A DNA stretch of 64,000 nt, from assembly GCA_964551435.1 (NCBI GenBank), contig CAZKBS010000001.1:143565-207564 (forward strand). The letters are read 5' to 3'. Source of the stretch: an uncultured Micavibrio sp. (GTDB lineage Bacteria > Pseudomonadota > Alphaproteobacteria > Micavibrionales > UBA2020). Both the position numbers and the translations under genes were made by a program. The notes under the pieces were generated by a model. That model was not told the origin of the DNA. It saw only the letters and a program-made list of their open reading frames with translations, and did no database searches. This document shows, one piece after another, positions 18,294 through 64,000 of the stretch; position 1 is the first letter of the stretch; every line of letters starts with the position of its first letter.

Positions 18294-19844
18294 ATGGCAG
18301 ACAAACGCCGATTGCAAAAGTCATTCACGCGTGCCGCGACAAAAACGCGCCGCACGCTGGGCGGTGTTTTTCTGGGCGCCGCGCTTCTGAGCGGATGCAG
18401 CAGTACGCCTGCGCGCATGGAAGGTGATATTGAAAGCGCCATCCTCGGCCACAAGCCAGTTGCGGCGACCGCGCTTCAGCAAAACCTCGAAGGCCGCAGC
18501 CTGACGGCCGATACCGAAGCGATTTTCAAACGCAACGTCAAAACCCCCGTCAACGAAAACCTGCCTGAAGACAAGCGCATCCGCGCTTATATCGATCAGC
18601 TGTGTTTCGTGCCGCAAAGTCCGCCCAAGCCTGAACAGGAAGCCGTGCGCGAAGCGCTGCAGGAACTGGCGAAGCTGCCGCTGACAGGCAGACCGCTTGT
18701 GGAACTGGCGATGCGCGAAAACTTGAAATTCTGCAATATTCAGACCATGCCGCTCGGCACCGGCGCGCAATATGTGCCGTCGCTGGGTGCCGTACTGGCG
18801 CCGCCCGAGGGGGAAAAACTGCAACTGCGTCAGACCATCGCGCATGAAATCCTGCACGGCGCACAGGACAAGCACGGGCTTCTGAATTATCAATACACAT
18901 GGGATATTGAAAGCCGCCTGGCGCGCAATCTGTCGATTGAAGCGGCGGCGCTGTCGATGGAAATCCTGATCGCCTTCGAAGCCAAGCAGTTGGGCAATCC
19001 CGCACATTGGGATTACATGCAAAAAAGATACGGCCCGCAAAGCGCCTATGGCGATCCTGCGGTTTACAAAAGCGCCGATGAAACCTGGGCCAAAGCCAAA
19101 GCGGAGGGCAAGGACGATGCCGCCGCGCTGCGCGCTGTGGGCGGCGTTATCTGGAATAAAATGTTCGATAACCGCGCATGGCTGGATTTCTATCTGAATT
19201 TCGAGCTGCAAACATATTTGCGCGACATCACCAGCGGCGCGCTGGATAACCAGACCGAAATTCACGGCAAAGCCTATGCGCAGGCCCTGATCGACAAAGC
19301 CGGCAAAATCGGCAACAGCGAGAGTTTCACCGAAGGCGCGCGCGTGCCCGCCCTCGACAAACTGCTGGAGGGCAATACGGCGATGCGTCAGGCCTATGCC
19401 GCGGCGGATCTGGAACGCCACCGCCGATCTCTCGGCGCGGATCATCCGAAAACGCAGGCGCTGAAACGCGCGGCAGAGGCGGATAACAACCCCTACATCA
19501 CCCTCGACCTTGCCAAGATTGTCGAGAAAAGCCGCGCCCATACCTTTGCCGATGAAAACGGCAAACGCAAATTTTCTTTCCTGCACGAATACATGGATAC
19601 GGCCGTTGGCCGTCCGCGCGTGCAAACGGCCGCGCCCGCCCCGTCGATGCTACCCGCGGCGCACCCGCCTACCCCGCCCGAGGTTAAAGGCACCGAAATC
19701 GCTGCACCCGGCAAGCCCGCCGCAGGGTCTGAACAAACCGAGCCTGAAAAGCCTCAGGACAACCCCGATGTCCCGCGCCCTGTTCCCCCGCGTGATACCT
19801 TGGCGCACATTAAACCCAGCCCCGCCATCGGGCGCGCGGCCTGA
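18294..19844 (+). CDS. Putative lipoprotein with HExxHxxQ metalloprotease-like motif (paralog family member 1)
   Basis: Lipobox GAALLSGC-SS. HEILHGAQD begins at 18843, with IEAAA 28 aa after the second His. Pro-rich C-terminus. Confidence 0.7.
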   Translation: MADKRRLQKSFTRAATKTRRTLGGVFLGAALLSGCSSTPARMEGDIESAILGHKPVAATALQQNLEGRSLTADTEAIFKRNVKTPVNENLPEDKRIRAYIDQLCFVPQSPPKPEQEAVREALQELAKLPLTGRPLVELAMRENLKFCNIQTMPLGTGAQYVPSLGAVLAPPEGEKLQLRQTIAHEILHGAQDKHGLLNYQYTWDIESRLARNLSIEAAALSMEILIAFEAKQLGNPAHWDYMQKRYGPQSAYGDPAVYKSADETWAKAKAEGKDDAAALRAVGGVIWNKMFDNRAWLDFYLNFELQTYLRDITSGALDNQTEIHGKAYAQALIDKAGKIGNSESFTEGARVPALDKLLEGNTAMRQAYAAADLERHRRSLGADHPKTQALKRAAEADNNPYITLDLAKIVEKSRAHTFADENGKRKFSFLHEYMDTAVGRPRVQTAAPAPSMLPAAHPPTPPEVKGTEIAAPGKPAAGSEQTEPEKPQDNPDVPRPVPPRDTLAHIKPSPAIGRAA

Positions 19845-20054
19845 TACTCTTTCGTTAAAAACAGCCTAAAAACAACGGCTTTTCCTTGGCGCCGTCGCAT
19901 CTGAACGCTGTTAAAAAAATAGTCAAAATCATAGCTTTACATATTTTTAAGCCCTGCCGCCTATAATAGGGGAAAAGGAAACGCGGCGAATCCTGCCTGC
20001 GGCCCCCGAGGCCCCACAAGGACACACGCCGCCCGAAAAAGGGTGTGTAGAGAT

Positions 20055-20807
20055 ATGGTTGCTATCGTCGCGGCCTTCGGGCCAGAGGATCTGGACAAGC
20101 AGCAAGACAGACTGAACGCCGCCCTGCTGGAGGCCGCCGCCACCGATGACATCCCCGCCTTTCGCCGCGCCTTTGCCGAGGGGGCGCATATCAACGCCCG
20201 CGGCGAGATAAACGAAACCGCCCTCATCCGCGCCGCACGCGAAGGCCGGTTGATCATGACCGAAATTTTGCTGGGCGCGGGCGCCAGTCTGGATTTGCAG
20301 GACCGCGACGGACGCACGGCATTGTCGCATGCAACGCAGGGCGGATTTACCGAGATTGTATCCATGCTGGTGCGCAGCGGCGCAGACATCACACTGGATG
20401 ATAAAAACGGCGACAAGCCGCTGGATATCGCGCTGCGCAGTGGCAATCCCGCGATGGTCGCCTTGTTCGAACAACCGCTGAAAGATTTGCTGGCGCGTAT
20501 TCCATCCGCCGATTCAGGGCCGCGGCTGCAACACCGCCGCGCCCCCGCCTGCCCGCCCGATCCGCACGGCGATACGATGCTGACCTGGGCCGCACGCGAA
20601 GGTCAGGAAAACGTGGTGCGCGCCATGGTGCAATCGGGCGCCGATGTTTTTGTGCGCAACCGCGCCGGCCGCACGCCACGCGAAGTCGCGGAAGCCGCCG
20701 GTCACCGGCTGGTGGCCTGCATGCTGGAAGACGCCGAAGCGCGGCAGATGTCCGCGCACGGGGCGCAGGCGGAAATACCCGCCGATATACCGGCGCGGCC
20801 TGTTTAA
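20055..20807 (+). CDS. Ankyrin-repeat protein
   Basis: Repeats include NETALIRAAREGRLIMTEILLGAGASLDLQD, GRTALSHATQGGFTEIVSMLVRSGADI, GDKPLDIALRSGNPAMV and GDTMLTWAAREGQENVVRAMVQSGADV. The ORF track opens at GTG 20043; the first ATG is 20055. Confidence 0.85.
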   Translation: MVAIVAAFGPEDLDKQQDRLNAALLEAAATDDIPAFRRAFAEGAHINARGEINETALIRAAREGRLIMTEILLGAGASLDLQDRDGRTALSHATQGGFTEIVSMLVRSGADITLDDKNGDKPLDIALRSGNPAMVALFEQPLKDLLARIPSADSGPRLQHRRAPACPPDPHGDTMLTWAAREGQENVVRAMVQSGADVFVRNRAGRTPREVAEAAGHRLVACMLEDAEARQMSAHGAQAEIPADIPARPV

Positions 20808-20834
20808 ATATTTGATGTCTGCATCACAGTAACG

Positions 20835-20868
20835 CCGCCCGCCGCACAAGGCGGGCGGTGTTTTTTTT
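20835..20868. terminator. Intrinsic terminator between convergent genes
   Basis: CCGCCCGCC, loop GCACAA, GGCGGGCGG, followed by TGTTTTTTTT. Confidence 0.8.
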
Positions 20869-62813: not shown

Positions 62814-62957
62814 ATGACGCATAAAGAGCACTTCGACTCCAAAGCCAGCCGCCCCGCCGCATCCGATGCGGCCCTTCCGCAGGCTGCCGTCCAGGTACAG
62901 GAGAATGGCATCAAGGTCGTCCATCATGGCGGCCCCGGCTTTATGCGTCCGCAGTAA
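62814..62957 (+). CDS. Small ORF (47 aa) in a self-contained transcription unit
   Basis: GGAGAG RBS lies 4 nt before the ATG. Product is MTHKEHFDSKASRPAASDAALPQAAVQVQENGIKVVHHGGPGFMRPQ. Flanked by a promoter candidate and a terminator. Confidence 0.45.
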   Translation: MTHKEHFDSKASRPAASDAALPQAAVQVQENGIKVVHHGGPGFMRPQ

Positions 62958-63004
62958 TTCTGCGACATCTTCAGCGAGTTTATTGTTGTGAGCCCCTTCC
63001 TTCC

Positions 63005-63037
63005 AAACCCGGCTTTTACCAGCCGGGTTCATTTTTT
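63005..63037 (+). terminator. Intrinsic terminator
   Basis: AAACCCGGCT, loop TTTACC, AGCCGGGTT(C), then ATTTTTT. Confidence 0.75.
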
Positions 63038-63161
63038 CCGGCTCATGTATTCTGTATATTTGTGGATAATTCTTGGCGCGACGCCCCACTTTGTGGTTTG
63101 ATAGGAACTGCAAACGGCGGCCCTCGGGGTGTGTTCGCTCAGGGTTTCAGGGAGTTCTTCC

Positions 63162-64000
63162 ATGTCTCGTTTGCCGGCACGCCTCACGCCGTTCTTTTTT
63201 GACTCAAGCCAACCGCCTGTACCGCCGGATCAAACGCCGCCCGCACCTCCTATAAATAATCGCGGCGACTGGACGGAACCCCACCCCGAAGGCTGGGCCC
63301 GTAAAACGGTAGCGGTGAATTTTATCGGAACGGTCGTTCACGAACGGCCGGATCCTTTCGCGACCGAAGAACAAAAACAAAAACGCCAGCACAAGCTCGA
63401 CAAAATCGCCGCGCGCAACGAACGCGTGCTGAACGAGGCGCTGTTCATCCTGTCGCAAAGCCCGACCGGCCGCGACGTGCTCGAACAAATGACCAAAGAA
63501 GGCTACCGCATTGTGTTCGACGACAAGCGCACGGGCGATCGCGGCGCGGGCGGACTTTGCGATCCATCCGACAAAACCATCATTCTGCGCGGGCATGACA
63601 ATCCGGCGTATCTGGCGCTGCTCATCGGGCACGAAGCGGTGCATGCGGTGCAAAACACCCGGCATGATTTGTTTCCCTCGACGCGGCACAAACCGGAAGT
63701 GGGCATCAAACTGTCCTTCGCCATCGAAGCCGACGCCTATGCGCAGCAATCGCAAATCGCGCTGGAGCTGGCCTATGGCGACCCCGACGGCCCCGCCGAC
63801 CAGATTAAATTCGAAGAGCCGCTGAAGCAGATGCGCCAGCGTTTTCCCGACATCATGCGCGCGGCGGAGCGTGTCATGACCCATGCCGAAAACATGAAAA
63901 ACGGCGCCAGCGTCGCGGCGGCATTCGAAGCCTTCTACGGCAATTTTCATTTACGTACATTCTACGAAGACGCGCATACCGAATGGGCGGAAACCTACGC
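63162..64000 (+). CDS. HExxHxxQ metalloprotease-like protein (paralog family member 3), 3'-partial at window edge
   Basis: Not in the ORF track because it runs off the end. GGGAG RBS with a 7-nt spacer. HEAVHAVQN begins at 63630, with IEADA 26 aa after the second His. Shares the GRD(V/M)L...G(Y/I)xIV(F/Y)DD block with the 32567 gene. Confidence 0.7.
   Translation, partial: MSRLPARLTPFFFDSSQPPVPPDQTPPAPPINNRGDWTEPHPEGWARKTVAVNFIGTVVHERPDPFATEEQKQKRQHKLDKIAARNERVLNEALFILSQSPTGRDVLEQMTKEGYRIVFDDKRTGDRGAGGLCDPSDKTIILRGHDNPAYLALLIGHEAVHAVQNTRHDLFPSTRHKPEVGIKLSFAIEADAYAQQSQIALELAYGDPDGPADQIKFEEPLKQMRQRFPDIMRAAERVMTHAENMKNGASVAAAFEAFYGNFHLRTFYEDAHTEWAETY

Follow-up and report, generated by a model that had tools for sequence, protein, structure and literature searches.

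Three genes in a 64,000-nucleotide stretch of an uncultured Micavibrio sp. genome (GenBank assembly GCA_964551435.1, contig CAZKBS010000001.1, positions 143,565 to 207,564 of the forward strand) encode members of the protein family DUF6782. We refer to the whole stretch as the window, number its first nucleotide as position 1, and call the three genes A, B, and C. They appear to be ancient paralogs and lineage-specific core genes, and the reading that we favor, with a probability of roughly 0.6, is that their products are catalytically active zinc metalloendopeptidases built on a minimal zincin core, with M78 as the nearest characterized family. An original prediction, made from the letters of the window before any database search, had grouped the three as novel gluzincin-like effectors with three different targeting modes.

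Genes A, B, and C belong to the DUF6782 family

The three open reading frames (ORFs) were confirmed by translation at the positions predicted originally. Gene A (18294..19844, plus strand) encodes a DUF6782 paralog of 516 amino acids (aa) that starts with a putative lipoprotein signal and ends in a Pro-rich tail. Gene B (32567..34174, plus strand; 535 aa) consists of a helical N-domain (residues 19 to 102), a hydrophobic putative anchor (136 to 152), the DUF6782 core (approximately 173 to 420), an Ala/Pro-rich linker, and a long helix (454 to 490). Gene C (63162..>64000, plus strand), a paralog without a signal sequence, is cut by the end of the window after the first 279 of its 405 codons. 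Its completion had been left to adjacent sequence, and the full length of 405 aa was obtained from a homolog (P0001) that showed one mismatch across the 279 shared residues.

A six-frame scan of the window (ORFs of at least 100 aa) detected the pattern HE..H..Q at positions 18843, 33296, and 63630 only, that is, in genes A, B, and C. The putative metal-site blocks that start there are 18843..18941 in A (H184-E185-x-x-H188, Q191, and E216 in SIEAAA), 33296..33400 in B (H244-E245-L-R-H248, W250, Q251, E278 in LEADA, and D280), and 63630..63728 in C (H157-E158-A-V-H161, Q164, E189 in IEADAYAQQ, and D191), all on the plus strand. The spacing between the second His and the downstream Glu, previously given as 26 to 30 residues, measured 28 in A (H188-E216), 30 in B (H248-E278), and 28 in C (H161-E189). 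The other motifs quoted for the three proteins were likewise all found, i.e., the TGR(D/P)xL segment (TGRPLVEL, LGRDMLAL, and TGRDVLEQ), the G(I/Y)xIV(Y/F)DD strand in two members, B and C (GISIVYDD and GYRIVFDD), and the Gln that follows HExxH.

All three proteins matched PF20573 (DUF6782, "Putative metallopeptidase family") with scores above the gathering cutoff of 27 bits (A, 45.7 bits; B, 61.4 bits; C, 96.5 bits). The same family was matched by 26 of 26 B orthologs and was the precomputed Pfam assignment of nearly all retrieved homologs. The TGRxLL segment, the HExxH helix, and the Glu helix of DUF6782 are also present in A, B, and C, and nothing excludes their membership. Pairwise BLASTP similarities were weak (E value of 7e-6 for A-C and 3e-4 for B-C; the best A-B segment, across the HExxH block, had an E value of 0.24). 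Alignments of the orthologs of each gene were then linked by hhalign for A-C (96.8% probability; E = 2.6e-10; 210 columns), B-C (96.0%; 4e-9; 180 columns), and A-B (79.5%; 1.5e-5; 170 columns). On these scores and alignments, the three genes are paralogous members of a single family, as had been proposed. The homology across 170 to 210 columns indicates a shared block of about 170 to 210 residues; thus, a shared block does exist, whereas the length originally given for it (approximately 100 aa) was too short and overlooked a second conserved helix (DFYLNFELQTYLRD in A and AFYGNFHLRTFYED in C). No fourth paralog was found in the window when hidden Markov models (HMMs) of each ortholog group were compared with all six-frame ORFs.

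The supposed novelty of the family falls, because DUF6782 is catalogued by Pfam and used by NCBI in the product name of the orthologs ("DUF6782 family putative metallopeptidase"). A, B, and C are therefore new members of a known, uncharacterized family.

Two side observations concern the C-terminal tails, which are Pro-rich and of low complexity. In A (residues ~443 to 516; 19620..19844), the tail carries PRPVPPRDTLA near its end in most orthologs; in B (33830..34174), the long helix is followed by a conserved RPT(T/S)xSRF(Y/I)P. These short motifs could be docking motifs.

The putative metal site is invariant within each ortholog group

Ortholog alignments comprised 26 sequences for A (clusters; 36 to 90% identity), 26 for B (identity down to 35%), and 52 for C (identity down to 36%). 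Within each group, HExxH, the Gln, and the downstream Glu were invariant (in A, across sequences down to 37% identity), as were W250 and D280 in the B group and D191 in the C group. The original prediction had made conservation of the HExxH residues in orthologs decisive for itself, and the zinc peptidases of gluzincin type that it proposed are plausible in light of the conserved HExxH and downstream Glu.

When the C profile was run with HMMER, exhaustively, against 1.84 billion cluster representatives, it yielded 432 proteins (clusters at 50% identity; E ≤ 0.001), so that DUF6782 is a small family. HExxH was present in 133 of 138 newly retrieved family representatives, and three of the five exceptions were fragments of approximately 100 aa or less. 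The Gln at position +3 after the second His was present in 98 of the 138, and a subfamily of ~600-aa proteins carries HELQHMED...ALE(A/S)NARVSEA in place of the Gln form; at this frequency, the Gln is a subfamily trait and not a family signature. All named homologs came from uncultured metagenome-assembled genomes (MAGs) labeled "Micavibrio sp." or "Alphaproteobacteria bacterium," with a few other labels, which probably reflect binning.

Other uncultured lineages carry DUF6782 genes as tandem pairs, in which a long form (~700 aa) accompanies a short one (~350 to 370 aa), e.g., at 4906..8085 of locus L032 and 8001..11344 of locus L033. One long-form protein (P0181) represents a cluster of 470 member sequences.

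Predicted fold and nearest characterized families

The AlphaFold model of full-length C (405 aa; pLDDT, 86.4; pTM, 0.82) places strands at residues 116 to 120, 131 to 134, and 139 to 142, followed by the HExxH helix (148 to 168) and the helix that contains E189 (178 to 205). The model of B (pLDDT, 74) shows strands at residues 204 to 208, 218 to 221, and 226 to 229, the HExxH helix at 235 to 253, and the E278 helix at 267 to 295, in addition to the separate N-domain and the long C-terminal helix. Judged by the order in which DSSP places the secondary-structure elements of both models, this predicted succession of a three-stranded sheet, the HExxH helix, and the Glu helix is the layout expected of a zincin core.

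Weak signals from several searches converge on M78 (ImmA/IrrE; PF06114; COG2856; e.g., Deinococcus IrrE/PprI and Bacillus ImmA) as the nearest characterized family. In a Foldseek comparison of C with the PDB, the top match was IrrE (3dti; E = 0.46; probability, 0.44; TM score, 0.19 to 0.28), which was the best structural E value for M78 with the C and B models and not significant. The top PDB matches of B were the Mycobacterium tuberculosis regulators 6cyj and 6cz6, which we take to carry a COG2856-type domain, together with selecase (4qhj), PprI, and M32 carboxypeptidases; none of these was significant (E = 7 to 10 for PprI and IrrE). Against BFVD, C produced local matches of ~90 residues to phage proteins annotated as IrrE-N-terminal-like, SprT-like, or "Peptidase" (probability, 0.8 to 0.98; root mean square deviation [rmsd], 2.5 to 3.5). 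Among the Pfam models, Peptidase_M78 matched B with 23.0 bits (cutoff, 22) and 10 of the 26 B orthologs at E ≤ 1, and a match was absent for A and C in the same scan; DUF6782 was a far better match in every case. The "metallo-protease" family phrog_87 matched B (3.1e-7) and C (0.0045). When profiles were compared with PDB sequences, the top match of A was IrrE at a nonsignificant E value of 0.2, B retrieved nothing relevant, and C retrieved only snake-venom M12B metalloproteinases, weakly and across the strand plus HExxH segment (E = 0.002).

In both M78 and DUF6782, an HExxH motif and a downstream Glu carried by the helix that follows it lie behind a small sheet, and the distance between HExxH and this Glu in IrrE is approximately 27 to 30 residues. 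M78 proteins, like most of DUF6782, lack signal peptides, and the export or membrane anchoring predicted for A and B is atypical of M78. Further differences are the DUF6782 core of ~250 residues, which has its own helical extension, and the lack of a fused helix-turn-helix (HTH) or GAF-like domain in A, B, and C. No cognate HTH repressor of the ImmR/DdrO type is adjacent to any of the three genes, and Pfam detected no HTH domain in their products; the neighbors encode HIT, DUF3592, and ankyrin proteins (A), LemA, M48, and a membrane protein (B), and an ankyrin protein, a small ORF product, and Smr (C).

Other small zincins overlapped locally with the models. The minigluzincin selecase aligned with the B core (TM score, 0.42; rmsd, 3.2; 74 columns), and a phage SprT-like domain aligned with the C core (TM score, 0.55; rmsd, 3.5; 87 columns). 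These matches were not significant (E = 0.5 to 2.5) and were limited to a generic zincin core of ~75 to 90 residues.

Of the families suggested for comparison in the original prediction, M48, M56, and SprT gave no Pfam match to A, B, or C at E ≤ 1, and the Pfam model of M91 gave none either. The suggested likeness to DUF4157 amounted to a subthreshold match of the HExxH helix of C (residues 153 to 168, i.e., 16 residues; E = 0.075; 13.7 bits against a cutoff of 22) to PF13699 (eCIS_core), presumably the former DUF4157, in which an HExxH helix likewise lies in a small zincin-like domain; A and B did not match. Metzincin membership was considered and rejected, because the third His and the Gly of HExxHxxGxxH are absent; A has a His at +6 (HEILHGAQDKH) that is not conserved in its orthologs.

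Three N-terminal targeting features

The N termini had been described as a lipobox in A, an internal anchor in B, and no signal in C, and each feature proved to be conserved in the respective ortholog group. The signal region of A (18294..18398, plus strand) comprises a basic n-region, the hydrophobic stretch GGVFLGAALL, and the lipobox LSGC with Cys35 and a Ser at +2. The lipobox pattern L-x-G-C occurs in nearly all of the 26 orthologs; G34 never varies among them, and very few lack the Cys. From this motif and its conservation, A is a putative lipoprotein. A Tat signal was rejected for A, because the RR pairs of the n-region are not conserved among the orthologs.

In B, the helical N-domain, itself conserved, is followed by a basic cluster of six Lys/Arg in 19 residues (KPPKPPQNKNSLMRRLARG; +6) and then by a 17-residue hydrophobic segment, the latter two at approximately residues 115 to 150. 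This putative signal-anchor (GTAMVALTLGLSTSMVM; 32972..33022, plus strand) is followed by an acidic, Ser/Thr-rich stretch and is the most hydrophobic 17-mer in 26 of 26 orthologs (Kyte-Doolittle value [KD], 1.2 to 2.3). Under the positive-inside rule, the position of the basic cluster before the anchor would give B an N-in/C-out topology, with the peptidase domain in the periplasm.

An N-terminal hydrophobic segment was found in none of the 52 aligned C orthologs. The same held for 125 of 130 full-length family representatives, a sample biased toward C-like sequences because it was retrieved with the C profile; the signal-less form of C is thus what is normal in the family, whereas A and B, which add a lipobox or a membrane anchor, are exceptions. 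At the level of motifs, we infer three targeting modes, each conserved within its own ortholog group.

Genomic context

The window is ordinary chromosome with a G+C content of 59.6%, and its genes include those for a ClpB-like ATPase, acetyl-CoA synthetase, GpsA, HemC, HemD, HemY, OsmC, HAD, GNAT, and Smr proteins. A, B, and C each lie in conserved chromosomal synteny, which for A and B is retained down to 37 to 39% protein identity. For A, the order DUF3592 (minus strand)/HIT (plus strand)/A is kept where A is only 39% identical, and the downstream side is variable. Promoter- and terminator-like sites around A and B were about as numerous as in shuffled controls.

The surroundings of B are conserved over a longer distance. 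The order ankyrin (minus strand)/Trypsin_2/FHA/ankyrin/ankyrin/LemA/M48/B/252-aa membrane protein is kept at 37% B identity, and its LemA/M48/B part is kept where B is only 37 to 48% identical. The genes for LemA (30459..31025, plus strand) and an M48/HtpX-like peptidase (31085..32428, plus strand), identified from the Pfam families of genes called in loci L001, L028, and L029, lie directly upstream of B, and the M48/M56 matches belong to the second of them. Directly downstream, in a position that it also holds in L028 and L029, is the 252-aa ORF (34275..35033, plus strand) of a polytopic membrane protein with six or seven hydrophobic segments and HELGH in the second; its match to Peptidase_M50 was below threshold and confined to residues 42 to 62 (E = 0.019; 14.7 bits against a cutoff of 27.2). 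The M48 gene, B, and the 252-aa ORF are consequently three consecutive genes for HExxH proteins. The block upstream of B (25090..32428, plus strand) is itself conserved and encodes, in order, a serine protease of the Trypsin_2 type that has a signal or anchor, a polytopic membrane protein resembling FHA/YscD, a pair of ankyrin proteins of which one has a membrane segment, LemA, and the M48 peptidase.

Upstream of C, and divergent from it, lies an ankyrin-repeat gene (61446..62486, minus strand; 346 aa) with matches to Ank_2 and related Pfam models and no hydrophobic N terminus. An ortholog of this gene is found upstream of C in most of 26 related loci, including the distant loci L026 and L027. 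Between it and C is a conserved 47-aa ORF (62815..62958, plus strand; MTHKEHFDSKASRPAASDAALPQAAVQVQENGIKVVHHGGPGFMRPQ), which is preceded by a GGAGAG ribosome-binding site and a promoter-like TTGAAT-17-TAATAT site and followed by a hairpin and T-run. In 14 related loci, tblastn detected the small ORF ahead of C and in the same orientation; it has a conserved N-terminal HKPxFDSKAxRP, a variable middle, and a conserved C-terminal KVVHHxGPGxxRPQ, and it had no Pfam match.

The window contains nine ankyrin-repeat genes (~15% of its genes) at 183..1307, 12110..12742 (minus strand), 12742..13236 (minus strand), 20043..20807, 21772..22449, 23268..24797 (minus strand), 27725..29479, 29750..30307, and 61446..62486 (minus strand), most of them without a signal sequence. 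This density is very high for a bacterium, and the same ankyrin genes recur in the syntenic loci of related MAGs. A general pairing of ankyrin and DUF6782 genes was rejected in view of this share of the genes, of the unconserved and signal-less ankyrin neighbor of A, and of the tandem DUF6782 pairs without ankyrin genes in other lineages.

More distant family members occur in those tandem pairs, beside genes for TilS/FtsH and CpoB/Pal (L034), or beside Suf genes. There was no plasmid match, and A, B, and C had no PADLOC match, on which grounds a mobile-element or defense origin was rejected; no Rfam element was found in the window.

Two further genes were noted. An 818-aa ORF (44835..47291, plus strand), flanked by HemC and a HemY-like TPR protein, combines a HemD (uroporphyrinogen-III synthase) domain with a C-terminal Mitofilin/Mic60-like region (PF09731; 49 bits) and is a putative fusion; alphaproteobacterial Mic60 homologs are known from hem clusters. 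The ORF at 10163..10753 (plus strand) encodes a LexA-like protein with winged-helix and S24 peptidase domains, and the matching position of locus L031 has an HTH_3/S24 gene.

Discussion

In the mechanism that we propose, a single Zn2+ would be held by the two His of HExxH and by the Glu located 28 to 30 residues later on the next helix, the Glu of HExxH would act as the base that activates a water molecule, and the substrate may add a further strand to the edge of the three-stranded sheet located before the active-site helix. A would be a lipoprotein facing the periplasm. B would be a single-pass inner-membrane protein whose helical domain of ~100 residues lies on the cytoplasmic side and whose peptidase domain lies on the periplasmic side, and C would be cytoplasmic, as would most of the family. 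By analogy with ImmA/IrrE, A, B, and C probably perform limited, partner-specific cleavage; that is, each would cut a restricted set of partner proteins and would not serve bulk degradation. The conserved block of LemA, M48, B, and the HELGH membrane protein suggests a role for B in envelope proteolysis or in signaling across the inner membrane.

Several points weigh against this proposal. The metal-site triad was placed by sequence and secondary-structure order only. No Foldseek match reached E ≤ 0.001 for the B and C models against the PDB or for C against BFVD, and the fold assignment consequently rests on the order of secondary-structure elements together with weak local matches. The putative anchor of B was modeled by AlphaFold as a low-confidence coil and not as a helix. 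We found no paper on DUF6782 or PF20573 and no biochemical evidence for any member of the family, none of which has a known substrate.

The original prediction regarded the three proteins as effectors. In its fullest form, this would mean that A, B, or C, and above all C, is exported and acts on proteins of prey bacteria or of a eukaryotic host by cleaving them, with the ankyrin neighbor serving as a cytoplasmic self-protection inhibitor. We consider this unlikely. The relatives are labeled Micavibrio sp., cultured members of which are epibiotic predators, and the 125 representatives without a hydrophobic N-region resemble in this respect many substrates of dedicated secretion systems, which lack a Sec signal; however, no secretion-system, chaperone, or immunity genes were found in the scanned regions of the window or in more than 30 related loci. 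Three of the 26 B orthologs weakly matched the "Effector protein" model Peptidase_M91 (best E = 0.033). The positions of the genes, in turn, are those of stable core synteny and not of variable islands, plasmid copies are absent, and family members elsewhere lie beside Tol-Pal/FtsH or Suf genes.

The ankyrin neighbor of C is the part of this alternative with a precedent. In Bdellovibrio, the ankyrin protein Bd3460 provides self-protection against predatory DD-endopeptidases, and the genes are adjacent (PMC4686830). The pairs are alike in that a gene for a hydrolase, or for a putative one, stands beside an ankyrin gene in a lineage that is predatory or labeled as such; they differ in that Bd3459 is a serine DD-endopeptidase and C is zincin-like, and in that Bd3460 carries a signal peptide and is cotranscribed with its target (PMC4686830), whereas the ankyrin neighbor of C is divergent, signal-less, and separated from C by another gene. 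The association with C is persistent: the ankyrin gene is retained at two loci whose C shares only 46% identity, and it keeps its upstream place in loci in which Smr now lies on the opposite side. C and its neighbor are both signal-less, but in at least one related locus (L017), the 6 kb upstream of C contain no ankyrin gene. A is predicted to be exported, but its ankyrin neighbor has no signal and the adjacency is not conserved. Moreover, nine ankyrin genes in 64 kb cut both ways: such unusual richness counts in favor of this alternative, but at ~15% of the genes, two of three genes would have an ankyrin neighbor by chance approximately one time in five. Because ankyrin genes are so dense in the window, the adjacency to C is weak evidence.

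A more specific version is that C, the 47-aa ORF, and the ankyrin gene divergent from C form a functional module specific to Micavibrio-like predators. The ankyrin protein would keep the signal-less protease C inactive in the cytoplasm of the producer, as Bd3460 does with its targets, and C would then be delivered to prey or would process the small protein. We regard this version as improbable.

It is more doubtful still that the proteins are not peptidases at all, and that the metal at the HExxH plus Glu site serves a different reaction (e.g., that of an iron-dependent oxygenase) or that they are noncatalytic binding modules. One weak Foldseek match to C was the HExxH domain of the alpha-ketoglutarate-dependent oxygenase ChlB (8s5f), but this match (E = 1.8; TM score, 0.24 to 0.28) was no better than noise. 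The top matches of B were deposited as transcriptional regulators, and the literature contains no demonstrated activity for DUF6782; the nearest sequence neighbors, however, are peptidase families (M78 and phrog_87), and a zincin triad plus catalytic Glu that is invariant in three ortholog groups and nearly so across the family is the pattern of active enzymes. Finally, a chance HExxH resemblance among unrelated or noncoding ORFs, to which the nonsignificant A-B BLASTP value might point, is ruled out for practical purposes by Pfam scores above the cutoff for all three proteins, by hhalign E values of 1e-5 to 1e-10, and by dozens of full-length orthologs for each.

The immediate result is one of annotation: three hypothetical proteins of an uncultured Micavibrio-like alphaproteobacterium are placed in DUF6782. 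To this are added a pattern of three paralogs in three putative compartments (lipoprotein, membrane-anchored, and signal-less) within one lineage, and site-specific proteases of the ImmA/IrrE type as the nearest, if weakly linked, characterized relatives of DUF6782. In addition, B is part of a conserved envelope-protease block, and an ankyrin gene and a small ORF accompany C. Should one of the three proteins prove to act in predation or envelope signaling, this would be the first function for DUF6782 and would offer a handle on a poorly studied predatory lineage. If C, the 47-aa ORF, and the ankyrin gene were indeed to form a predation module, DUF6782 would represent a new predation-linked class of zincins with paralogs in three compartments of the predator-prey interface.

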